Part shown: positions 1 to 9,560 of the stretch, one piece after another
Position numbering within the stretch: the first letter of the stretch is position 1
Layout: each line of letters opens with the position of its first letter
IMG/VR virus record: IMGVR_UViG_2529292985_000013
Coordinates: 1 to 9,560 of that record
Strand: one strand, 5' to 3'
DNA from: a virus
Taxonomy: Duplodnaviria > Heunggongvirae > Uroviricota > Caudoviricetes
Length of the DNA stretch: 9,560 nucleotides
Program-made: the position numbers and the translations under genes
The notes under the pieces: generated by a model
Databases searched by the model: none
What the model was told of the DNA's origin: nothing
Seen by the model: only the letters and a program-made list of their open reading frames with translations

Positions 1-2
1 TA

Positions 3-344
3 TTAGCCTGGGCGCTGGTGGAGCTGGTAAAGCGTCTGCCATATATCATTGAGTTGAACACCGGGCATGAAACTATCGTTATAGCCCATGCCGACTATCC
101 AGGTGGAGAGTACCAGTTCGGTAAGGATGTGTCGCTTTTTGATGTTGTCTGGTCGCGCAGTCGCGTCGGTGATTCGATAGATGGCATTGGTGGAGAAATC
201 ACAGGCGCAGATCGCTTTATCTTTGGGCACACACCGGTACGAAGACCAAAAGCATACTGGAATCAGCACTACATAGACACGGGCGCGGTTTTTTGCGGAA
301 ATCTGACGCTAATGCAGGTGAAGGGAGGGCAGCTTAAAGTCTGA
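3..344 (+). CDS. Ser/Thr protein phosphatase (PPP / calcineurin-like metallophosphatase), C-terminal part; 5' end lies upstream of the window
   Basis: Frame is open from the window edge to the stop at 342-344. Translation contains C-terminal metallophosphatase motifs (FIFGHTPV, YIDTGAVFCGNL) typical of lambda-type PPP phosphatases. P1 encodes such a phosphatase (ppp), but identity was not verified. Confidence 0.8.
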   Translation, partial: LAWALVELVKRLPYIIELNTGHETIVIAHADYPGGEYQFGKDVSLFDVVWSRSRVGDSIDGIGGEITGADRFIFGHTPVRRPKAYWNQHYIDTGAVFCGNLTLMQVKGGQLKV

Positions 345-369
345 TCAAATCATTTACGCACTCAAAATG

Positions 370-399
370 TGTTAGAACATTGATTTTAGTTTTCTAACA
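370..399. promoter_or_regulatory. Palindrome TGTTAGAA-N14-TTCTAACA in the ppp / next-gene intergenic region, overlapping -35-like TTGATT (380-385)
   Basis: Perfect 8-bp inverted arms at 370-377 and 392-399 read directly from the sequence. An 8-bp inverted repeat with a short spacer is expected about 3 times by chance in 9.5 kb, so only its position in a promoter-like AT-rich spacer supports an operator role. Confidence 0.25.
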
Positions 400-441
400 T
401 ATTATTTTACCGCTCGGAACAAAACAGAGTCGGTATACATT

Positions 442-1437
442 ATGAGTGCAATAATCACACCTCATTTCGTAAACGGAGCTGGTGTGGCTGTCTTTCCGGT
501 AGACAAGCCCACCAGCAACTACATTGGCGCAGGTCGCCGTTTCATTATCTCTCCACTTCCGCGCGAACAGGCTGAAAACACGCCAGATGGCGTAGTGGAT
601 CTGAACTATTCGCTGGTTGCCAACCAGTCTCTGAAAGCATTTTTTCAAAGCGAGCGCGTATTTAACGCATTAGGCGGTGAAGATTCGCTTGTTCATTGGG
701 TAAGTTCCAATATCCACGATTGCCAGGCGCACGATAAGCGCGATTGCAGCCACCAGCTAACCACTCATTTCTATAACGGCTCTGCCGTTCGCCTGTGCTG
801 GAAGCATGATGCGGAATACATGATGAAGGGGTACAGCAAGCTGGACGACCAGTTATCCCTGAATCGTGCCAACTGGGTTATGAACTGGGCTGCGAGCGAG
901 TTAAAACTACCGCCAGAACGCGATCTGAGTATGGTTGAACTCACTTTTTGGGCCATTCGCCGGAATCTGAAAGATGAGCTGCCAGATGAAGCCGGTCGCA
1001 TTGCATTTTGTCAGCCAAAAACTGAAATCCCTACCGGTACGCTGAAAGAATCAGATATCACCTGGGAGCACAGTACCCGCGAGCTGGTGGACATAACCGC
1101 AGAGCAGATCGTCAACCTGTCTGTAGATGAGGATTCCGGCCTGCTTTATATGCGCCGACCAAAAGCGGTCCTCGGTAAAAGCCCGGCTTATCTCCGGTTT
1201 GTGGTGTCTCGCCCGTGTGTAGGCTGCGGCGGCAAGGTTAATCACCCATTCATGTACCGCGCTCGCTCGTTAAACGAACACGACCGCTGGGCTGTTCCTC
1301 TTTGCGATGACTGCGCCAGAAGCGCAGAAAACGATGTCCGGGCATGGGAAAAAGCACATGGCATCCGCCTTTACGTAGCCGCTAACCAGCTTTTCGACTT
1401 CGCCATTGAGCGCGGAGTGATCACGTTCAATAACTGA
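442..1437 (+). CDS. Hypothetical phage protein, 331 aa, with C-terminal Cys/His-rich HNH-like zinc-finger motif
   Basis: ATG start, long uninterrupted ORF. C-terminal segment CVGCGG..NHP..NEHD..CDDC has two CxxC pairs flanking His/Asn residues as in HNH-type nuclease folds. Possible DUF968-like prophage protein (recalled, unverified). Confidence 0.75.
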   Translation: MSAIITPHFVNGAGVAVFPVDKPTSNYIGAGRRFIISPLPREQAENTPDGVVDLNYSLVANQSLKAFFQSERVFNALGGEDSLVHWVSSNIHDCQAHDKRDCSHQLTTHFYNGSAVRLCWKHDAEYMMKGYSKLDDQLSLNRANWVMNWAASELKLPPERDLSMVELTFWAIRRNLKDELPDEAGRIAFCQPKTEIPTGTLKESDITWEHSTRELVDITAEQIVNLSVDEDSGLLYMRRPKAVLGKSPAYLRFVVSRPCVGCGGKVNHPFMYRARSLNEHDRWAVPLCDDCARSAENDVRAWEKAHGIRLYVAANQLFDFAIERGVITFNN

Positions 1438-1450
1438 TGGAAACAACGCA

Positions 1451-1750
1451 ATGAGTCAAGGTAACGGTGACGGAGCTGCAAAGTGCAGAATCTCCACTTG
1501 TTTGATTAATGACAGAAAAATAGAACCGTGTGCGGCGCTGGCACAATCTCTGGAGCAGGATGCTGAATACACGACGCGAAAAGGTCTGCTGAAATACAAA
1601 ATCTATAACCATGAATTAATTCATTCACAAGAACTGATCATGCTTCGGTCAGGCGAGTTTTCTAAATCGCCGATTCGGGTTTCATTTTGCCCGTTCTGTG
1701 GTGAAAGTCTGAAAACGTGGAAAGCGGAGGCAACCAGTGAGCAAGATTGA
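1451..1750 (+). CDS. Small hypothetical protein, 99 aa, possible zinc-ribbon (C-x5-C near N-term, CPFC near C-term)
   Basis: ATG-initiated ORF 13 nt after the upstream stop. Its 3' end overlaps the next gene's GTG start by 14 nt (coupling). Confidence 0.55.
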   Translation: MSQGNGDGAAKCRISTCLINDRKIEPCAALAQSLEQDAEYTTRKGLLKYKIYNHELIHSQELIMLRSGEFSKSPIRVSFCPFCGESLKTWKAEATSEQD

Positions 1751-2384
1751 TTATCAAAAGCTTCGTGAAATCGCTGAAAAAACAAAAATTGCTGGTGAAG
1801 CACCTGTAATGCCTTTCGATCAGCGAATTAATGCGCTTAACGATTTTATGAAGCACTTTTCGCCAGATATCGCGCTGGCATTGTTGGATGAACGGGAAAG
1901 AAACCTGCAATACATCAAAAGCCGCGATCAGGAGAACGAGGATATTGCGCTAACGGTAGGGAAGCTGCGTGTTGAGCTGGAAGGCAAAGACAGCAAAATA
2001 GCCAATCTTACCGCCGAACGCGATGCTCTTCGTGAAGGTGAGATGGGCGACGCTAGGCATAGCAACACACGGGCCGCAGCTGATATCTACTTCCAACTGG
2101 TCGAGGAGTGCGAAATTCCTGCTGGCGGATCTCTGGTCGAGTACGTTGACGATATGCGCGAGAAGCTGGAAGCCGCAGAGAAGCGCATAGCAGAGTTAGA
2201 AAGTGATTCTCAGGCACAAAAGTTAGTTGAAGCAATCATTGTTGCGATAGAAAACGAACAGGAACGTCTTTTTGATGAAGATTACCTAATGGATTCGAAA
2301 GAATGCATTGACGTAATTCGTGAAGAAGTAAAGCGATGGAATGATTCCCGCACCGCTGGCATTCGCATCAAAGGAGGTGAGTAA
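1737..2384 (+). CDS. Hypothetical charged, coiled-coil-like phage protein, 215 aa
   Basis: GTG start overlapping the upstream ORF. Highly charged E/K/R/L-rich sequence with heptad-like stretches. Stop TAA 2382-2384 overlaps the ATG of the next small ORF. Confidence 0.7.
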   Translation: MSKIDYQKLREIAEKTKIAGEAPVMPFDQRINALNDFMKHFSPDIALALLDERERNLQYIKSRDQENEDIALTVGKLRVELEGKDSKIANLTAERDALREGEMGDARHSNTRAAADIYFQLVEECEIPAGGSLVEYVDDMREKLEAAEKRIAELESDSQAQKLVEAIIVAIENEQERLFDEDYLMDSKECIDVIREEVKRWNDSRTAGIRIKGGE

Positions 2385-2560
2385 TGCGTGTGGCATGTAT
2401 CGGCTTGTTACCGTACCCGACTCGCTTTTGGGCTTCTGCGCTAATTGCAAAGCCACATGTCCTGATGGCTGACAACATCATCCCGGCACCAAAGCGCCGC
2501 CATACCGGTATTGCATCGGCACGACGAGCAGCAAAGAGACGCAGGAGAGCAAAACGATGA
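2384..2560 (+). CDS. Small basic protein, 58 aa, not in the supplied ORF track (below its apparent length cutoff)
   Basis: ATG at 2384 overlaps the upstream stop (TAATG). Strong SD GGAGG at 2373-2377, 6 nt upstream. Hand translation MRVACIGLLPYPTRFWASALIAKPHVLMADNIIPAPKRRHTGIASARRAAKRRRRAKR; stop TGA 2558-2560 overlaps the next ATG (ATGA). Confidence 0.4.
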   Translation: MRVACIGLLPYPTRFWASALIAKPHVLMADNIIPAPKRRHTGIASARRAAKRRRRAKR

Positions 2561-2745
2561 AAAACCGTAAAGCAAAGATTCTGTTAGTTCGTAGAAACGC
2601 TCCTGGCGTCTGGCAGTGGGTGAGACTCAGCAACCGCCGGATGGGGTTAATGAAACATTACGGGATGATGGATTGTGGTTTTTGCAAAAAGCCCAGCGCG
2701 GCGCAAAACCGCTGGAAAAACCACTTGCGTACTAAAGGAGAGTGA
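2557..2745 (+). CDS. Small basic hypothetical protein, 62 aa
   Basis: ATG overlapping the upstream stop (ATGA), SD-like GGAGA upstream. Stop is 1 nt before the next ATG. Confidence 0.45.
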   Translation: MKNRKAKILLVRRNAPGVWQWVRLSNRRMGLMKHYGMMDCGFCKKPSAAQNRWKNHLRTKGE

Positions 2746-2746
2746 T

Positions 2747-2956
2747 ATGGCTATCGCTGCAAGTTACACCATGCATCTCTATTGTGACTGCCGTCAGTGC
2801 ACGGAAGGTGTATATCCAGTGCCAGACTTCGGTGAGTATATAGGTACGTCATGGGCTGGCTGTGCAAAAGAGGCGCGCAAGGATGGCTGGCGAATAAGCA
2901 AAGACAAAACGCGTGCTTTTGCGCCCGGGCATAAAGTTTTGAGGGTTAACAAATGA
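2747..2956 (+). CDS. Small Cys-rich hypothetical protein, 69 aa (C-x-C-x2-C ... C), possible zinc-binding
   Basis: ATG at 2747 preceded by strong SD AAGGAG (2735-2740). The longer track ORF from 2675 lacks an RBS, so the internal start is preferred. Stop overlaps the next ATG (ATGA). Confidence 0.55.
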   Translation: MAIAASYTMHLYCDCRQCTEGVYPVPDFGEYIGTSWAGCAKEARKDGWRISKDKTRAFAPGHKVLRVNK

Positions 2957-3783
2957 CCACTATAACCAAAGAGCGACTACTGACAATCAAGCAGTGGCGC
3001 GAAACATACGGACCTGGTAGCAACGTTGTACTGCCAGCAGAAGAAGCGGAAGAACTGGCGCGGATTGCGCTGACATCGCTGGAAGCAGAGCCTATTGGTG
3101 AAGTTTCAGAGAAGCAACATGGCCTTGTTATGGATGGGACGGTAGACCTTGGCGGGAAATCAACTTATCGCATCATTAAGGGAGAAAAAGCGATGAAGTT
3201 GTTGCCGTTGGGGACGAAGTTTTATACCGCACCGCCAGCGCCGATAACGCCGGAGGCCATTGAAAACGCAATTGAATACATCCGCAGTATCGCTTTTCAC
3301 ATCGATGAAGACGATTACCACGGCAAACATATTGCGTATTTCATGCGACAAGCATTGGCCTGGCTGGAAGGGCATTCATGCAGCGACGACAGACAGGGTA
3401 AAGCCGAGAATCAACCAGTACGCGGCAACCAGACTGCCGAATCCAATCGCGGTAATGAGTGGACCGGCAATCCTGATATTGATAACGCAATCATCATGCT
3501 CGACCGCATAGATACGCTGGAAAATTGCGATGATGACCGTATTGAGGCTGTTAAGGCCGTTTTGCGTAGACTGGCTGGCAACCATCCGGATTTTCCGGAT
3601 AGTTCCCAACAATCGCCCAAGAAAAGCGTAAAAACCACTCTGGAAAGAGGCTATCTTGAGGCCGCATTAAAGATTAAGCCGGGCCATACGCTAGGCGTCA
3701 TTGATGCCATGTTGGTTCATGAAATGGCGAAGGCTTTATTGCCGCTGGTGGCTGATAAAATTCCGAATAAGGCCGATATCTGA
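2953..3783 (+). CDS. Hypothetical phage protein, 276 aa
   Basis: ATG start coupled to the upstream gene; long ORF with protein-like composition. Followed immediately by a strong intrinsic terminator. Confidence 0.7.
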   Translation: MTTITKERLLTIKQWRETYGPGSNVVLPAEEAEELARIALTSLEAEPIGEVSEKQHGLVMDGTVDLGGKSTYRIIKGEKAMKLLPLGTKFYTAPPAPITPEAIENAIEYIRSIAFHIDEDDYHGKHIAYFMRQALAWLEGHSCSDDRQGKAENQPVRGNQTAESNRGNEWTGNPDIDNAIIMLDRIDTLENCDDDRIEAVKAVLRRLAGNHPDFPDSSQQSPKKSVKTTLERGYLEAALKIKPGHTLGVIDAMLVHEMAKALLPLVADKIPNKADI

Positions 3784-3793
3784 TCACCATGCT

Positions 3794-3824
3794 AAAATCC
3801 CCTCAATTCACAGAGGGGATTTTT
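3794..3824 (+). terminator. Rho-independent terminator
   Basis: Perfect 11-bp stem AAAATCCCCTC (3794-3804) / GAGGGGATTTT (3813-3823), 8-nt loop, T-run to 3824. Lies 11 nt after the stop of the 276-aa gene. The stem's 3' arm doubles as the SD for the lipoprotein gene. Confidence 0.8.
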
Positions 3825-3828
3825 GTAT

Positions 3829-4095
3829 ATGTTGCATAGAGTTTTATGGAAAAGCGTTATTGTCGGCGCGATCTTGGCTATGTCTGGGTGTGCAATGGTG
3901 CAATACAACGACGGTGAAAAGGTAAGCATCCAGTCAGATGGCTGGTATGGGCTGGATAGTCTGCAAAAAACCGCAGATAAAGCCTGTCAGCAATATGGGA
4001 AGTCTAAAGCCGTATATCAGCATAGCGCGAACGCTAATCCCCATCTCGCGCCCGGTACGGGCGTTCAGAACACCATTTGGAAATGCGAACCATAA
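3829..4095 (+). CDS. Small secreted lipoprotein, 88-aa precursor
   Basis: ATG at 3829 (track ORF begins at an upstream TTG) with SD GAGGGGA 8 nt upstream. N-terminus MLHRVLWKSVIVGAILAMSGC has a positive n-region, hydrophobic core and lipobox-like LAMSG-C (signal peptidase II site). Mature part has 3 further Cys. Confidence 0.7.
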   Translation: MLHRVLWKSVIVGAILAMSGCAMVQYNDGEKVSIQSDGWYGLDSLQKTADKACQQYGKSKAVYQHSANANPHLAPGTGVQNTIWKCEP

Positions 4096-4134
4096 TGCTG
4101 GTGGCATCTTTGTTACAAAGAGGAACACCTGCTC

Positions 4135-4485
4135 TCAATGCAGGGGATGAGATTTAACGAAATCGATCACCCTATCCTGAACTTCAGAAAGAAGGTCTTT
4201 TTCATGCGCCAGGACGTCAGGATATTGACGTTCTGGCCTTACCAGATGCCGGAGCTTCCCATTAAGCAGAATGGCCTCAGAAAACACTTTTACGCTGTGC
4301 TTTATCCCCTCTGTTTCACTTTTCAGCGTCAAAATAAAGCGCAATTGCTTATTAGCCTGATTCGGATTCAATACACGAATTTGCAGTTCGTCTATGCTGT
4401 TTCGCAATGGGATTGATGCCACCACACTGGTGCTGTCTCTGATTGTCTGAATTGAACGGCTAACATTGAGAACGTTATTGTGCAT
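4135..4485 (-). CDS. Hypothetical protein, 116 aa, opposite strand to the surrounding gene block
   Basis: ATG-initiated ORF with purine-rich first codon positions. The overlapping + strand ORF (4138..4416) translates to an F/Y/Q-rich shadow-like sequence. Weak RBS (AGG only 3 nt from ATG) and rare codons (AGA, AGG, ATA, CGA) keep confidence low. Confidence 0.4.
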   Translation of the reverse strand: MHNNVLNVSRSIQTIRDSTSVVASIPLRNSIDELQIRVLNPNQANKQLRFILTLKSETEGIKHSVKVFSEAILLNGKLRHLVRPERQYPDVLAHEKDLLSEVQDRVIDFVKSHPLH

Positions 4486-4517
4486 GTGCCTGATCCACTA
4501 ACTCCTGGAGGTTTCTT

Positions 4518-4769
4518 GTGTCAGATCGAAATATAGCAGCTAAAAGCCAGGAAGAGCGAGACAAGGTGAACGTAGACCTTGCCGCCAGCGGCGTTGCTTA
4601 CAAAGAACGGCTGAATATACCTGTGATTGCAGAGCAGGTGGCCCGTGAGCAACCGGAAAACCTGCGCGCCTATTTCATGGAACGGCTACGGCACTACCGG
4701 CAGTTAAGCCTCCAGTTGCCAAAAGGGAGCGATCCGGTGTATCAGAACGAGGATGCACCAAAAAAATAA
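4518..4769 (+). CDS. hot: Homologue of DNA polymerase III theta subunit (HolE-like; P1 Hot-like)
   Basis: GTG start with SD GGAGG 7 nt upstream. The segment [43 protein letters not shown] closely parallels E. coli HolE ([43 protein letters not shown], recalled). Confidence 0.85.
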
Positions 4770-4854
4770 CGGCAAGATGGGGGAGAAATGTGATTAGCCC
4801 CCAGCGTTGCGCGCCTACAAATCCCGCTTTCACAAACTATGCCTTTTCAATGTA

Positions 4855-4874
4855 TACTGTATAAATAAACAGTA
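4855..4874 (+). promoter_or_regulatory. LexA (SOS) box overlapping a sigma70-like promoter for the humD-like gene
   Basis: TACTGTATAAATAAACAGTA is a perfect CTGT-N8-ACAG SOS box, nearly identical to the E. coli umuDC operator (recalled). It overlaps -10 TATACT (4853-4858); -35-like TTCACA at 4829-4834 (18-nt spacer); 18 nt upstream of the ATG at 4893. Confidence 0.85.
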
Positions 4875-4892
4875 TCATTGAGGTAAAACGCT

Positions 4893-5282
4893 ATGGGCTT
4901 CCCTTCTCCTGCGGCGGATTATGTTGAAAGCCGAATTTCTCTTGATCAGCAACTAATCAGGCATCCATCAGCAACCTACTTCATGCGGGCAGCTGATAGC
5001 CATCACCGTGAGGGAATATTGCAGGGTGCTTTGCTGGTGGTTGATTCCTCGCTTACTCCGGTTGATGGTTCTCTGCTTGTGTGCGCTATGGAGGGTGAAT
5101 ATCGCATAAAGAGATACAGGAAGTATCCGCGCCAGCACCTGGAGGATTTAAGCACCGGGAGGAAAGAGGCGTTACCAGTGGATGACGATGGATGCACGGG
5201 GAGTAATGCTGTTTTTGGTGTGATCACTCATGTCATCAATGATGTCCGAAGTGGGGAATTTGACGATTGTCCGGTGATTTAA
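4893..5282 (+). CDS. humD: UmuD' mimic: S24 peptidase-family UmuD homologue lacking the N-terminal arm (P1 HumD-like)
   Basis: Protein begins MGFPSPAADYVE, matching E. coli UmuD from Gly25 (first residue of processed UmuD'). An in-frame TAA at 4884-4886 precludes a longer N-terminus. Ser (ADSH) and Lys (RIKR) of the UmuD dyad are retained. Confidence 0.9.
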   Translation: MGFPSPAADYVESRISLDQQLIRHPSATYFMRAADSHHREGILQGALLVVDSSLTPVDGSLLVCAMEGEYRIKRYRKYPRQHLEDLSTGRKEALPVDDDGCTGSNAVFGVITHVINDVRSGEFDDCPVI

Positions 5283-5317
5283 GCTGCAAAGTGCTGGTGC
5301 TTTATACCTGTGAAGTT

Positions 5318-5346
5318 TATAGTTGTGTACACATAACGAGTACACG
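5318..5346 (+). promoter_or_regulatory. phd-doc promoter/operator region with tandem palindromic sites
   Basis: Perfect palindrome TGTGTACACA (5324-5333) and imperfect CGAGTACACG (5337-5346), 13 bp centre to centre, next to -10-like TATAGT (5318-5323), just upstream of the phd SD. Consistent with Phd/Doc autoregulation of P1 phd-doc (recalled). Confidence 0.6.
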
Positions 5347-5354
5347 AGGTGTTT

Positions 5355-5576
5355 ATGCAATCCATTAACTTCCGTACCGCGCGCGGCAACCTTTCTGAAG
5401 TGCTCAACAATGTTGAAGCCGGGGAAGAGGTTGAAATCACCCGCAGAGGCCGAGAGCCAGCAGTAATTGTCAGCAAGGCTACTTTTGAAGCCTACAAAAA
5501 AGCGGCGCTGGATGCTGAATTTGCATCCCTGTTTGACACCCTGGACTCCACCAACAAGGAACTGGTTAACCGATAA
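5355..5576 (+). CDS. phd: Phd/YefM-family antitoxin (prevent-host-death)
   Basis: ATG at 5355 with SD GAGG 6 nt upstream (track ORF starts at an upstream GTG). The 73-aa product [56 protein letters not shown]... matches P1 Phd as I recall it. Stop TAA overlaps the doc ATG (TAATG). Confidence 0.9.
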
Positions 5577-5956
5577 TGAGGCATATATCACCGGAAGAAC
5601 TTATTGCGCTTCATGATGCGAATATAAGCCGCTACGGCGGCCTGCCGGGAATGTCAGATCCGGGTAGGGCAGAGGCCATTATCGGGAGAGTTCAGGCCAG
5701 AGTTGCCTACGAAGAGATCACCGACCTTTTCGAAGTCTCCGCCACCTACCTGGTAGCTACGGCGAGAGGGCATATATTCAATGATGCCAATAAGCGTACC
5801 GCGCTAAACAGTGCGCTGCTATTTCTACGCCGTAACGGCATACAGGTATATGATTCTCCCGTGCTGGTGGAACTTGCGGTGGGGGCCGCAACTGGTGAAA
5901 TCCCCGTATCTTCAGTAGCGGAAAAACTACGTGAATTATTTGGTTCCAATATTTGA
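5576..5956 (+). CDS. doc: Doc toxin (Fic-fold kinase, death-on-curing)
   Basis: 126 aa coupled to phd. Contains the Doc-type Fic motif [11 protein letters not shown] (HxFx[DN][AG]NKR). Length and sequence match P1 Doc as recalled. Confidence 0.9.
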
Positions 5957-5960
5957 AAAG

Positions 5961-5984
5961 AAGCCCGCTCAACCAGGCGGGCTT
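5961..5984. terminator. Hairpin between convergent transcription units (doc on +, leftward operon on -), probably bidirectional
   Basis: GC-rich 8-bp stem AAGCCCGC (5961-5968) / GCGGGCTT (5977-5984), 8-nt loop. On the - strand it is followed by CTTTTC (better U-tract); on the + strand a T-run appears only further downstream. Confidence 0.55.
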
Positions 5985-6039
5985 CCTACTATCACTCAAT
6001 GATTTTTTCTGCTGTCAGCCAGCTAATTCGGTGATGTTT

Positions 6040-6840
6040 TTAGGCGTCAGCATCCTCCGCTACCTCTGCTTCAACATCAGCCACGGCTTCATCGGACGGT
6101 TCTTCTTTGGCCTGCTCTGCAATCGCCGCACGGCATTTGGCCCTTGCTGTGGCGATTGCTTCAGCACGCACATCATCAGGAATCATTGACGTGATATACA
6201 TATCCAGTTCTTCGGCGCGGAACACTGTTTGGTCCAGATATTCGCGTAGCATCCAGGTAAATTCGAAATCACACGCGATAATCTCTGCGCTACCTTCTGC
6301 ACCATTTGGGAAATGAATAAAAGCCTGTTTAGCCAAACCGATAACACGACATGCGGTTGCCAAAACAGCGGCAACCAGGTTTACATTTTCACACGCTACG
6401 GGCTGATTAACGCCGGAGATTACTCCATTTAACTGTCGGTTATATGGAAGGTAGTTTGAGATGCGTTCTACGCGCCATGTGCCAGTCAGGCTGCCATTCT
6501 TAAAGATAATTGGTGTAACGGATAGCCCAAGCTCGCGTATAAGTCGTTGCGCTATAGCAGGATCATTAAACATGTCTAATGCTACACATTCGAAAGACTG
6601 TGCAAGGGTAAACAGTTCTTCCAGAGAGTAGTCTTTGCCCCTGGCGGTGATGTAACGATGAACGCCGCTTTCTGCATCACTCCATATAGCTACGCCATGC
6701 TCTTCATTCAGCTCTTCATTAAAGCCGAGATACGTCATGATAGTACGTTCAATCGTGTCAAACGGCAGTGACATGTCGGCGTTAACAGCCACCAGCAGGC
6801 CATTACGCAAGCGGTATTGAATTGCTTTAGTATTTTCCAC
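6040..6840 (-). CDS. Hypothetical protein, 266 aa, with strongly acidic Ala/Glu/Asp-rich C-terminal tail
   Basis: Long ORF with GTG start at 6840, 6 nt after the upstream stop, SD-like GGAG 9 nt upstream. No recognisable catalytic motif (no P-loop, no HxH). C-terminal ~40 aa are low-complexity acidic (EEPSDEAVADVEAEVAEDADA). Confidence 0.7.
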   Translation of the reverse strand: MENTKAIQYRLRNGLLVAVNADMSLPFDTIERTIMTYLGFNEELNEEHGVAIWSDAESGVHRYITARGKDYSLEELFTLAQSFECVALDMFNDPAIAQRLIRELGLSVTPIIFKNGSLTGTWRVERISNYLPYNRQLNGVISGVNQPVACENVNLVAAVLATACRVIGLAKQAFIHFPNGAEGSAEIIACDFEFTWMLREYLDQTVFRAEELDMYITSMIPDDVRAEAIATARAKCRAAIAEQAKEEPSDEAVADVEAEVAEDADA

Positions 6841-6846
6841 GTTAAA

Positions 6847-7509
6847 TCACTCCACTACAAACCAGTCACATGCCAGCAAGTCGCCTACAGAAGGCAACCA
6901 CGGAACAACTACACCTTGTGCATTTTTTAAGGCGAAATAAGCACCATACGGAACGAGATCGCCGGGGAAATATCCCTTAATGGCTTCCATTCGTGCCGGG
7001 TACTGTCCTTCAGGAACCAGCCAGCAGAATTGGTTTTCGCCGTTCCACCCGCGCCGGGCAACTTTCTTGCCATCCTTCAGCCACATCAGCGCGTCAGAAA
7101 AGTCGGCTGCTTCAAGGTCGATTTCTTCTTGTAGAGTAGCGATACCGCCAGCAGAAATAGTTACGTCCCTGGCTGTAATGAATGTCACCCCATTGTGACC
7201 TTCAATGCTGAGCGATACCCCATTTTCGGAGGCGTCGTTAACCCGGCTATAGCATTTTTCAAATGCTTTCTCTGGCACATAGACCAGATAGCCATTTTCA
7301 GCAGTGACGAGATATCCTCCTATTTGCGGTCGGAATTTTTCCAAGAACACACCATCAACACGAAGCGTCATTCCTTTTGGCTCAACGACTTCGATACTGC
7401 CAAAAATGGGCGCATAAGCTTTGCCGACAATAACAATATCTTTGATTTTCGATGCCCGAATGATGCTGTGGCATTTGTATTTGGGGAACACCTGAAAAGT
7501 GCTGACCAT
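6847..7509 (-). CDS. Two-domain protein, 220 aa: N-terminal ~135-aa domain of unknown function fused to a C-terminal DUF2829/Tad2-like domain
   Basis: ATG with SD AGGAAGG upstream. The C-terminal ~85 aa (FSDALMWLKDGKKVARRGWNGENQFCWLVPEG...VVVPWLPSVGDLLACDWFVVE) fit my recollection of the DUF2829 pattern (ALxxLKxGKKVxRxGWNG ... WxPSxxDLLAxDW), the family of Thoeris anti-defence Tad2. Confidence 0.75.
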   Translation of the reverse strand: MVSTFQVFPKYKCHSIIRASKIKDIVIVGKAYAPIFGSIEVVEPKGMTLRVDGVFLEKFRPQIGGYLVTAENGYLVYVPEKAFEKCYSRVNDASENGVSLSIEGHNGVTFITARDVTISAGGIATLQEEIDLEAADFSDALMWLKDGKKVARRGWNGENQFCWLVPEGQYPARMEAIKGYFPGDLVPYGAYFALKNAQGVVVPWLPSVGDLLACDWFVVE

Positions 7510-7523
7510 AATCCTTCCTCTAC

Positions 7524-8018
7524 TTAAAACTTTGCGTACTGAAGCGGTGTACGCTTGATTTCAACGCGGTCTTCCGATGTGCTACCAAAGCCACCAGCGC
7601 CTCGCTCTGTTTCATCGAGTTCATCAACTTCTACCAGCGATACCGGTTCAACACGCTCAAAAATGCCTTGCATGACCGCCATTCCTGGCTTGAGGCAAAC
7701 GCCTTCACCACCGGGATCTGTAATCAGTTTTGCCATGATTTCACCGCGATAATCGGAGTCGATAATTCCTACGCAGTTAGCCAGGCGAGTATGTTTTTTG
7801 CAGCCCAATCCGGAACGCGGATAGAGTTTCAGACACCAGCCGGGCGGGATCTCCATAGCCAGTCCGGTGTACACCCACCAGCTTGAGGAAATTGCACCAT
7901 TGCTATCGACACATGGTTTTATTTCAACAGCCTCAAAATCCATCGCCGCCGATCCGGAGGTGGCATAAGCTGGAAGTTTTGCTGCCGGATGTAGGCGTTT
8001 CACTTTTACGTAAATCAT
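7524..8018 (-). CDS. dut: Trimeric dUTPase homologue (deoxyuridine triphosphatase) with divergent motif IV and short C-terminal extension
   Basis: ATG overlaps the upstream stop (ATGA). Motifs: I PAYATSGSAAMDF, II PRSGL, III GIIDSDYRGE, V ERGAGGFGSTS. Motif IV reads GMAVMQ where E. coli Dut has GERIAQ (Arg replaced). About 15 extra residues follow motif V. Confidence 0.85.
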   Translation of the reverse strand: MIYVKVKRLHPAAKLPAYATSGSAAMDFEAVEIKPCVDSNGAISSSWWVYTGLAMEIPPGWCLKLYPRSGLGCKKHTRLANCVGIIDSDYRGEIMAKLITDPGGEGVCLKPGMAVMQGIFERVEPVSLVEVDELDETERGAGGFGSTSEDRVEIKRTPLQYAKF

Positions 8019-8491
8019 TGTTTTTTAGCTCTCTGCGTGAAGGTGTAAACCCGACGTTTGATATGTGGAACGGTAGGAACAGGAATACAGGAACTTTCAA
8101 TAACTCCTTGCTCCTCCAGCGATCGCACCGCCCGCAAGAACTGCGACGTGTCGCCGCCAAACTGGCGGGCATAGGTGCTGCCGTTATGAAGTATTTGAGC
8201 TATTACCCGAGCTTTTGTCTGGCTGTCACGATATGCGAATAGCCGCACGGCCTCTTCTGGCGCAATCGATAACTGATAGCCTTTACCGGCACGGTGTCGA
8301 ATGAATCCATGCGCCAGTAGGTTTTTGAGTTCGTTACGAGTGCGAACAGATCCGTAATCCAGGAAGTGTGGATTGATAACGACTGGCTTAAACCATTCCG
8401 TAGGTGCTTTAGCTAATAGAGCTAACAGCTTCCCGGACAATCCTGGATAGGAAGACGGGTAACAATTCAGAGATGGGTAATAAGTTTTCAC
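8015..8491 (-). CDS. Hypothetical protein, 158 aa, possible winged-helix DNA-binding segments; no internal Met
   Basis: GTG start overlapping the upstream stop (GTGA), preceded by AGGGGG. The protein has no internal Met, so a non-ATG start is obligatory. Segments LLALLAKAPTEW...RTRNELKNLLAHGFIRH and STYARQFGGDTSQFLRAVRSLEEQGVIES look like HTH/winged-helix recognition regions (inference). Confidence 0.6.
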   Translation of the reverse strand: MKTYYPSLNCYPSSYPGLSGKLLALLAKAPTEWFKPVVINPHFLDYGSVRTRNELKNLLAHGFIRHRAGKGYQLSIAPEEAVRLFAYRDSQTKARVIAQILHNGSTYARQFGGDTSQFLRAVRSLEEQGVIESSCIPVPTVPHIKRRVYTFTQRAKKQ

Positions 8492-8844
8492 CGACGCCCC
8501 CTTGCCGGATATCGACCTGCATTAGTATCCGGTGCAATAAAGCCGGTAGTGGGGCGAGTGAAAGCGAGATTAATCTTCTCGACCATAGTGCGATAATTTT
8601 CCTGATAGTGGGCCAGGAGTTTTTCGGCGGCAATGATGGTTACTTTCCGGACGTAGCTTTCTGCTTCCTCCAGATTTCGCCAGTTTTTTTCGAGGGTAAA
8701 CACAGGGACGGCCTCAAGCCCGGTCATGATGCCGAATACAACGACAGCATGACTGTTCTTAACACCAGCGGCGAAGGTTACGGTGTAACCATCCACCGTG
8801 AAGCGTCTTGATTCCGTGATTTGACTCTGCAAAGCACCCTCCAA
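8488..8844 (-). CDS. Small hypothetical protein, ~114-118 aa, first gene of the leftward operon
   Basis: Frame is open only from TTG at 8844 (in-frame stop 6 codons further upstream); no ATG is available. A second TTG at 8832 sits 5 nt after a GGAGGG SD-like sequence and may be the true start. Function unknown. Confidence 0.5.
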   Translation of the reverse strand: MEGALQSQITESRRFTVDGYTVTFAAGVKNSHAVVVFGIMTGLEAVPVFTLEKNWRNLEEAESYVRKVTIIAAEKLLAHYQENYRTMVEKINLAFTRPTTGFIAPDTNAGRYPARGRR

Positions 8845-8905
8845 AATAGGCGAGGGTACTTTACAGCAAAGATATCAATCTAAAAAGATGTGTTAGAAAT
8901 TTAAT

Positions 8906-9560
8906 TTACGAATCCATCAAGCGGCTATTAGCCCCCACAGACACACCGCCACGGCGCAGATACCGCATAAGTGTTTCCGGTTTCTTCCAGGTTCCTTCCT
9001 GCATGATCTCCACCATAGACACCTGCTTTTCAGCCATATCGATAGCGGCCCCGACACGAGCACTATGCCCGGTCCACGTCCGGTATCTCCCTTTGTTTGG
9101 CGCGGCATCCCTTTTATTCAGCAACACCCAGGCGTCGCTGAATATTTTCTCCATTGCAGGTGCAGTAAGGGGCGTTGTCGTAATCCTGGCCTTATTGCTA
9201 CGGTGTATCGGCGGGAACAGCACCGCGTCAGGATGTTCACGAAGCCCGGAAACATCCAGCCAGTCATTCAGCACAGCAGTAGTGCGACGGGAAAGCACCT
9301 TATCAAGCCCGGCGGCGGTCGTTATTGTCTTCGTGTGTGAAATATGTAGCGTGACAGTGTCACCTGTTTGGTCCAGATCTCCTACACGAATACGCGAGAT
9401 TTCCGACATACGCATCAGCGTATTGTATGCAACAAAGAGAAAAGCCCGGTTGCGCTGGTCCACCAGCCGTTCTGACCTGGACAGCAGGACGTCGAGCAGT
9501 TTCAGGTCGTCCCACCGCAACGGTATAGCCTGGCCTGTTCGCTCGCCTTTTTCCGTTGCC
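8906..9560 (-). CDS. Cre-family tyrosine recombinase, C-terminal catalytic part; 5' end beyond the window
   Basis: Frame stays open to the window edge upstream of the track's TTG at 9520. Translation aligns with P1 Cre (recalled) over the catalytic domain: RAFLFVAYNTLMRMSEISRIRV vs RNLAFLGIAYNTLLRIAEIARIRV, GHSARVGAA (His/Arg box), and conserved Trp/Tyr (TWKKPETLMRYLR). Roughly 45-50 percent identity by eye, so it is not P1 Cre itself. Confidence 0.85.
   Translation of the reverse strand, partial: ATEKGERTGQAIPLRWDDLKLLDVLLSRSERLVDQRNRAFLFVAYNTLMRMSEISRIRVGDLDQTGDTVTLHISHTKTITTAAGLDKVLSRRTTAVLNDWLDVSGLREHPDAVLFPPIHRSNKARITTTPLTAPAMEKIFSDAWVLLNKRDAAPNKGRYRTWTGHSARVGAAIDMAEKQVSMVEIMQEGTWKKPETLMRYLRRGGVSVGANSRLMDS

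Follow-up and report, generated by a model that had tools for sequence, protein, structure and literature searches.

A P1-like addiction and SOS island abutting an inverted, dre-containing gene block: a viral DNA segment that very probably derives from a phage D6-type plasmid prophage

The 9,560-nucleotide stretch of viral DNA analyzed here (positions 1 to 9,560 of the IMG/VR record IMGVR_UViG_2529292985_000013, Caudoviricetes; hereinafter, the window) raises the question of what kind of element joins a ppp...hot-humD-phd-doc block resembling that of phage P1 to a terminator, a convergent operon and a gene for a Cre-like recombinase. A first-pass annotation, made from the nucleotide sequence, read this arrangement as a P1 relative, or another element that captured P1 modules, in which the packaging and immunity segment had been replaced. 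The components themselves, namely ppp, hot, humD, phd, doc, the terminator, the five-gene convergent operon and the recombinase gene, are present as described there, according to the listing of open reading frames (ORFs) and the family scans, and the P1 map on which that reading drew (doc, pdcAB, lpa, pacAB, immC, loxP-cre) agrees with the P1 annotation. Our comparisons indicate, with high confidence, that the window is a segment of a plasmid prophage of the phage D6 type (the "P1g2" subgroup of P1-like phage-plasmids) from Escherichia coli or a close relative.

The best phage match of the window is Escherichia phage D6, for which we used the genome record (NC_050154/MF356679) and the record of the immC region (AY753669); it aligns with 77% of the window at 96.7% nucleotide identity, in nine collinear pieces. 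The D6 annotation lists, on the first strand, ppp, a pdcB-like, an upf87.4-like and an Ea22-like gene and, further on, hot, humD, (orf109), phd, doc and pdcA; the convergent part consists of an isaA-like gene, a DUF2829 gene, dut, orf116, orf117 and a tyrosine recombinase gene, with rox at the origin of the record. The older immC record annotates lpa, pacA, pacB, c1, rox, dre, orf2, orf3 and dut. The closest plasmid, NZ_CP095127 (pIso00270_02, 94 kb), is 98.8% identical over 95% of the window, and at least 80% of the window is covered by 42 PLSDB plasmids and 39 complete E. coli genomes, the replicons concerned being nearly all plasmids of 86-95 kb. The gene order of the window (ppp ... doc, hairpin, convergent operon, dre) is the normal order in D6 and in about 40 plasmids of ~90 kb. 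This arrangement is already known: it is the published genome organization of phage D6 and is common among E. coli plasmids, so that the suggestion of an order unlike that of characterized phages gives way to an alignment with the standard D6 arrangement. D6 has been assigned to a separate, more divergent "P1g2" subgroup of phage-plasmids (PMC10879196).

The same records bear on the possibility that the source is not an intact phage-plasmid but the remnant of a D6-like element, either defective or cointegrated, for instance through fusion with another plasmid or integration into a chromosome. A few matching records do exceed the size of a phage genome (NZ_CP021720, 216 kb; NZ_CP195333, 120 kb), and the chromosomal prophages and other plasmids in which the lambdoid genes and doc also occur number in the thousands. 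Such an origin is nevertheless improbable, given the narrow size range of the replicons that cover at least 80% of the window and the fact that every ORF in the window is intact.

The recombinase gene at the right end of the window (8906-9560, minus strand; Pfam Phage_integrase, 6e-17) runs off the window end about 380 bp before the start of dre, and the comparison accordingly covers the C-terminal 217 of 342 residues. Within this fragment, 215 of the 217 amino acids are identical to those of D6 Dre, and identity to P1 Cre is 40%; by this measure, the "inverted Cre-like gene" of the first-pass annotation is the gene for the Dre recombinase. Alignment to Cre indicates that the six catalytic positions of the Cre-family recombinases are conserved in the fragment, and the conserved active-site stretches include LMRMSE, HTKT, GHSARVG, GTW and RYL; the aligned catalytic residues correspond to R173, K201, H289, R292, W315 and Y324 of Cre. 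Dre of phage D6 recognizes the 32-bp rox site (PMC3082901). The rox site of pIso00270_02, located between dre and c1 (L003:21193-21224), is one base off D6 rox, in one arm (TAACTTTAAATAATGCCAATTATCTAAAGTTA).

The fate of the packaging and immunity genes is apparent from the genes beyond dre. In D6, rox is followed by c1 on the plus strand and by pacB, pacA and lpa on the minus strand. The closest plasmid shows the same succession next to its recombinase gene, with c1-like, terminase, pacA and lpa-size genes. Contrary to what had been proposed, the packaging and immunity segment is not replaced: rox, c1, pacB, pacA and lpa adjoin dre in both D6 and the closest plasmid. In P1 (NC_005856), hot, lxr, humD, phd, doc, pdcA, pdcB, lpa, pacA and pacB are annotated on one strand, followed by c1, coi, imcB and imcA on the other strand and then by lox, cra and cre; this P1-type order, doc-pdcA-pdcB-lpa-pacA-pacB-c1-coi-imcBA-lox-cre, does not occur in the window.

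Comparison of identity and orientation for all D6 genes with P1 homologues showed that the D6 genes inverted relative to P1 include one contiguous block of ~15 kb, from the isaA-like gene (87343) to pmgM (11412). The block runs through isaA-like, Tad2-like, dut, orf116, orf117, dre, rox (the origin of the record), c1, pacB, pacA, lpa, tciB and tciA and ends with pmgS and pmgM; the tRNA cluster also lies inside it. The orientation opposite to that of cre in P1, noted before for the recombinase gene, is that of the whole block. The P1 orientation is kept in the flanking D6 backbone (ulx, darB, ddrB to lydA, the tail genes, genes 21-23, genes 5-7, genes 24-26 and the segment from ppp to doc). According to ARAGORN, the D6 tRNA cluster within the block is collinear with that of P1 and lies on the opposite strand. 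The annotation table of NC_050154 places these tRNAs on the plus strand, whereas in the ARAGORN prediction, the four of them, for Met, Ser, Thr and Asn, lie on the minus strand (L006:7145-7850), which fits the inverted block; ARAGORN also detects an additional tRNA-Met at 6084-6159 in NC_050154 that is missing from the table. Given that the contiguous inverted block starts at the isaA-like gene, the doc/isaA-like junction in the window is one end of this block.

A rearrangement of this kind would leave the pac-c1-rox-dre unit intact, as expected if packaging, immunity and cyclization or dimer resolution work as a linked set. In P1, packaging begins at pac, and lox is close enough to fall within the terminal redundancy of the first headfuls; presumably, pac, c1, rox and dre are kept together for this reason. 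A search of the accessible literature for the direction of P1 packaging relative to lox yielded no statement on it.

These observations also bear on a different derivation of the window, directly from P1, in which the pdcAB-lpa-pacAB-immC segment was deleted, foreign cargo took its place and a diverged, flipped cre was left behind. Within the window, P1 similarity indeed stops at 5946, there are no pac or immC genes, and four of the five genes following doc have no P1 homologue. However, both D6 and the closest plasmid carry c1, pacB, pacA and lpa immediately past dre/rox, on which ground simple replacement of the pac and immC genes was rejected; the pdcB homologue is still present, at 442-1437; and the backbone is of the D6 type (99% identity to Dre as opposed to 40% to Cre, with D6 structural proteins 40-55% identical to those of P1). 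We consider a direct P1 derivative very unlikely and retain the D6-type plasmid prophage as the source of the window. The description of the genes following doc as non-P1 cargo applies to the four genes without a P1 homologue but not to the fifth, which encodes a homologue of IsaA (47% identity).

The relationship with P1 is uneven along the window. Nucleotide similarity is limited to positions 1-325 (83%), 3655-3754 (85%), 4524-4772 (85%) and 4840-5946 (94.5%), the last of these tracts ending 10 nucleotides short of the doc stop codon. When every ORF of the window was compared with the complete P1 genome using tblastn, no match was obtained for the Tad2-like gene, dut, orf158 and orf118 on the right, or for the upf87.4-like and Ea22-like genes, the three small ORFs, the lipoprotein-like ORF and the minus-strand 116-amino-acid ORF on the left. 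The backbone proteins of D6 typically show 40-55% identity to their P1 counterparts, as in the case of the capsid (44%), sheath (41%) and portal (50%) proteins, IsaA (48%) and Dre compared with Cre (41%); PacB is 56% identical, PdcB 38%, and PacA and C1 20% each. A set of D6 genes, namely pmgU (95%), the hot fragment (87%), humD (95%), phd (100%), doc (99%) and pdcA (92%), is 87-100% identical to P1, and ppp is 86% identical.

In the window, hot, humD, phd and doc likewise encode products with 91-100% amino acid identity to P1, compared with 40-55% for the D6 backbone. At the nucleotide level, this island is 92-93% identical to that of D6 and 94.5% identical to that of P1, that is, no closer to D6 than to P1. 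The mosaic structure is real on two levels, a P1-like island in a distant backbone and a lambdoid variable region. In this respect, the notion of a P1 relative that joins P1-like modules to genes lacking in P1 was right, and the suggested alternative of "another element that captured P1 modules" came close to the truth. From the contrast in identity between the island and the backbone, and from the equidistance of the island, we infer that exchange of hot-humD-phd-doc between the lineages of P1 and D6 has been recent and is continuing; the P1-like block would be a module that passed from one to the other by homologous recombination. A search for repeats at the module boundaries that might represent recombination scars revealed none that were convincing. 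Elsewhere in D6, tciA (98.6% amino acid identity) and cin (97.8%) are nearly identical to their P1 counterparts within the 40-55% backbone; judging from these values, they are further exchanged islands in addition to hot-doc.

The right edge of the island coincides with a distinct structural element. Between the convergent stop codons lies a GC-rich hairpin with a 10-bp stem (5960-5985), which starts three nucleotides past the doc stop codon, folds with a predicted energy of -28.5 kcal/mol (z = -3.0) and is terminator-like on the minus strand in the consensus scan. By this consensus, the hairpin would suit the convergent operon better than doc because the T-tract is on the minus strand. In D6, the tract identical to P1 extends through pdcA up to a TTTGAAAAGAAGCCCGC...GCGGGCTT hairpin; in the window and in 44 plasmids, the hairpin directly follows doc, and in D6, the same hairpin motif follows pdcA. 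The hairpin marks the border between the P1-like island and the D6 backbone, and the right edge of the island abuts this conserved, terminator-like element at the end of the D6-specific convergent operon. The pdcA gene, which follows doc in both P1 and D6, is missing in the window (5946-6089 compared with D6 L001:8260-8530). A 701-bp probe spanning the doc/isaA-like junction is intact in 44 plasmids, and doc by itself is present in more than 1200. An assembly chimera, in which a P1-like contig ending at doc was joined to an unrelated contig, would account for the abrupt breakpoint in P1 similarity but was rejected, and we give it practically no credence, given that 44 independently assembled complete plasmids carry the same junction, as does the D6 phage genome, with pdcA interposed.

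On the other side of the hairpin, five minus-strand genes are tightly packed, with 4-nucleotide overlaps or gaps of 6-14 nucleotides, and converge on it. The gene nearest the hairpin (6040-6840; phrog_2326, 8e-135) encodes an IsaA-like protein of 266 amino acids that is 96% identical to D6 orf113 and 47% identical to P1 IsaA, the gene for which is located at 21.6 kb in P1, next to ssb and IS1. No match to this protein was found among Pfam, NCBIfam and PADLOC models or PDB sequences; its C-terminus forms a strongly acidic tail (…EEPSDEAVADVEAEVAEDADA). The next gene (6847-7509) encodes a two-domain protein of 220 amino acids with a C-terminal Tad2-like (DUF2829) domain that matches Pfam PF11195 over the full length of the domain (2e-22); residues 132-220 align end to end with the Tad2 structures 9eib and 8v3e in the PDB (E ~1e-19). 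The N-terminal domain (residues 1 to ~131) has no family assignment; phrog_872 spans the full length of the protein, and the two-domain architecture recurs in phages within this family. Tad2 proteins sequester Thoeris signaling molecules (10.1101/2023.05.01.538930, PMC10680739). In the closest plasmid, another gene of the Tad2 family is located at a distance of about 7 kb (L003:26252-26827). The remaining genes of the operon encode a dUTPase of the trimeric type (7524-8018; Pfam dUTPase; 94% identical to D6 dut), which matches 57 PDB dUTPases with a best E value of 2e-24; a 158-amino-acid protein (8015-8491; D6 orf116/orf3; phrog_6669; 99% identical to D6), for which a PDB sequence search gave nothing significant; and a protein of up to 118 amino acids, with an uncertain start codon (8488-8844; D6 orf117/orf2; phrog_1968; 100% identical to D6). 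Together, the five genes would supply early or accessory functions; besides a dUTPase and three further proteins, they would provide a sponge of the Tad2 type that takes up Thoeris signals.

The regulation of this operon may be linked to that of the prophage. A two-copy repeat family led to a 21-nucleotide motif with the core TGTGTTAGAAA and the consensus AAAATGTGTTAGAAAACTAAT. A weight matrix trained on ten D6 sites and applied with a cut-off of 14 bits yielded 15 matches in D6, of which 14 are intergenic, compared with an intergenic fraction of 10% of the genome; the same matrix gave no match in P1 and 0-2 matches in each of ten random genomes with the same dinucleotide statistics. The D6 matches that were not part of the training set precede c1 (by 34 nucleotides) and lpa or fall between mat and simB; ref, pmgS and hrdC are likewise preceded by D6 sites, and the icd-repL interval contains the motif as well. 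Several of these places have annotated C1 operators in P1, where such operators are listed at c1, lpa, ref, mat and pmgR/pmgS. The operator consensus derived from these annotated sites is ATTGCTCTAATaAATtt, and the reverse complement of the D6 motif agrees with it at 12 of 17 positions. The P1-type C1 operator ATTGCTCTAATAAATTT, the consensus of which was confirmed from the annotated P1 sites, was not found in the window within three mismatches. The 21-nucleotide motif is probably the operator of the D6-type C1 repressor.

The window contains two adjacent copies of the motif in opposite orientations between ppp and the DUF968 gene (364-384, plus strand, 19.0 bits; 385-405, minus strand, 29.0 bits) and a third one immediately next to the dre stop codon, ahead of the five-gene operon (8885-8905; 28.6 bits with the position weight matrix). 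The latter has counterparts in D6 (at 89942) and in pIso00270_02 (L003:19992), where seven motif sites were detected in total. The five-gene operon may have its own repressor-controlled promoter, marked by the predicted operator between dre and the first gene. That the motif is a D6-type C1 operator that, through the copy at the dre stop codon, places the operon under the control of the prophage repressor is a tentative proposal to which we assign a rather low likelihood. If it is correct, the operon would form a module for counter-defense and nucleotide hygiene that is expressed early and is specific to the D6 lineage; a description of it in these terms may be new. A literature search on phage D6 operators returned nothing relevant, with the primary D6 papers outside its scope; the operator may already be published.

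Several points weigh against the assignment to a D6-type plasmid prophage or qualify the conclusions drawn from it. At the megablast level, 23% of the window has no alignment with D6; the non-D6 share comprises the variable lambdoid region and the longer Tad2-like gene, and pdcA and D6 orf109 are missing. The source element is a relative of D6, not D6 itself. In this molecule, rox, c1 and pacAB would lie beyond the window, and we infer their presence from D6 and from plasmids that are 97-99% identical over the shared part. That the island was exchanged recently is deduced from the difference in identity between island and backbone rather than from a dated phylogeny, and the operator is a predicted feature, as is the control of the five-gene operon.

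The genes of the P1-like island follow one another on the plus strand. A full-length hot, encoding a homologue of the theta subunit of DNA polymerase III (4518-4769; Pfam DNA_pol3_theta, 3e-33), is 93% identical to P1 Hot at the amino acid level; hot of D6 is truncated to a 48-codon ORF (L001:6456-6602). Upstream of humD, a sigma-70-like promoter, the only good one on the plus strand, overlaps a LexA box (4829-4872); the box itself, CTGTATAAATAAACAG, occupies 4857-4872, 21 nucleotides upstream of humD, and a LexA site is annotated at the equivalent place in P1. The UmuD'-like product of humD (4893-5282; Pfam Peptidase_S24) is 97% identical to P1 HumD. The phd antitoxin gene (5355-5576; Pfam PhdYeFM_antitox) encodes a protein identical to P1 Phd (100%), and the doc toxin gene (5576-5956; Pfam Fic), with the motif HIFNDANKR, encodes a protein that is 91% identical to Doc of both P1 and D6 and 100% identical to that of pIso00270_02. 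The pair shows the features of type II Phd/Doc toxin-antitoxin systems, namely adjacent genes, the HxFx[D/N][A/G]NKR motif and a stop/start overlap at 5576.

The left part of the window begins with the C-terminal part of ppp (3-344, plus strand; Ser/Thr phosphatase, NinI-like; PHROG 246, E = 9e-43), the product of which is 100% identical to D6 orf97 and 81% identical to P1 Ppp. It is followed by a DUF968/HNH-endonuclease-like gene (442-1437, plus strand; Pfam DUF968, 4e-45; PHROG 96, HNH endonuclease) with 99% amino acid identity to D6 orf98 and 38% to P1 PdcB. Judging from this similarity, the DUF968 gene is a relocated homologue of pdcB, which in P1 sits after doc, with pdcA in between. A small upf87.4-like ORF of the P7/D6 type (1451-1750, plus strand; phrog_4030) is 96% identical to D6 orf99.

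Beyond this point, the window contains a hypervariable accessory region (1726-4121) whose genes are about 89-93% identical to those of Shiga toxin (Stx)-converting phages and phiV10. All the following ORFs up to 4095 are on the plus strand. An Ead/Ea22-like lambdoid accessory gene (1737-2384; Pfam Ead_Ea22, 2e-17) has nucleotide matches of about 89-92% to phiV10 and Stx phages, and three small lambdoid-type ORFs (2384-2560, phrog_13831; 2557-2745, phrog_1380; 2675-2956, phrog_926) show, over 2384-2956, 92.7% nucleotide identity to Stx-converting phages. Next is a 276-amino-acid ORF (2953-3783) that matches several PHROGs of unknown function and has a C-terminus resembling that of PmgU, the last ~52 amino acids being 65% identical to P1 PmgU; the ORF is 50% identical to D6 orf104. 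A terminator-like hairpin with an 11-bp stem and a T-rich tail on the plus strand (3794-3823; inverted repeat I4) is directly followed by a small ORF (3823-4095; phrog_7757), which is 100% identical in pIso00270_02 and has no tblastn match in D6 or P1. When the upstream start is used, the predicted product may be a lipoprotein, with a signal-peptide-like N-terminus ending in the possible lipobox AMSGC (…AILAMSGC…); the RefSeq form of this ORF is shorter and starts with the Met just before the Cys. D6, the window and the nearest plasmid each have a different gene content in the region 1726-4121, which therefore appears to be a hotspot where genes are exchanged with lambdoid prophages. The lone minus-strand ORF amid the plus-strand left part encodes a protein of 116 amino acids (4135-4485; D6 orf106/RCS47 p0100 type; phrog_2594; 96% identical to D6). 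The NCBIfam scan of the unassigned window ORFs produced no match, and PADLOC defense models applied to ten of these gave nothing meaningful; the Rfam scan of the window had no match, and ARAGORN found no tRNAs in it.

As a discovery, the arrangement carries little weight: it is the published one of phage D6, from which the widely used Dre/rox recombination tool comes. The analysis serves mainly to correct the earlier reading, in that the packaging and immunity genes have not been lost and instead occupy an inverted block immediately beyond the window. It also provides a clean example of two deeply diverged phage-plasmid lineages with nearly identical addiction and SOS modules (phd-doc, humD and hot), and the operator-like motif and the Tad2-like gene in the operon adjoining dre are modest leads in the search for D6-type immunity or anti-defense genes in phage-plasmids.

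Compared with P1, the window keeps the order and strand of ppp (81% amino acid identity), hot (93%), humD (97%), phd (100%) and doc (91%), and the LexA box before humD is retained in both. Homologues of pdcB, isaA and cre are also present but at places other than in P1 and at identities of only 38%, 47% and 40%, respectively, for their products. Whereas doc in P1 is followed by pdcA-pdcB-lpa-pacAB-c1-lox-cre, doc in the window is followed by the hairpin and by the convergent operon next to dre; lxr, which in P1 is located between hot and humD, is absent from both the window and D6.

The window and D6 have in common the gene order between ppp and dre, the terminator hairpin at the end of the convergent operon and the operator-like motifs after ppp and dre. 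The window differs from D6 in the lack of orf109 (between humD and phd in D6) and of pdcA, in the presence of a full-length instead of a truncated hot, in the length of the Tad2-like protein (220 amino acids compared with 146 in D6), in a doc allele that is 90% identical to that of D6, and in the make-up of its lambdoid ea-type genes at 1984-4121, among them the small lipoprotein-like ORF. The plasmid pIso00270_02, an example of the D6-like plasmids of E. coli and Shigella that represent the P1g2 subgroup, is closer: the match is contiguous from 2358 to 9560, and the proteins from humD to dut are identical. In this plasmid, rox, c1, pacBA and lpa come next after dre. The differences include ~1.3 kb of additional sequence (two extra genes) in the Ea22 region of the plasmid and a differing sequence at window positions 1995-2357.

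The recombination module resembles the Cre/loxP system in that the D6-type tyrosine recombinase gene lies beside its site and c1, but Dre is 40% identical to Cre and acts on rox, which lies beyond the window, rather than on loxP. The protein encoded by the Tad2-like gene of the operon shares with the Tad2 sponges a domain that is Tad2-like by sequence and differs from them by the extra N-terminal domain of ~130 amino acids; the DUF2829 family to which this domain belongs also takes in anti-CRISPR proteins of the AcrIIA7 type.

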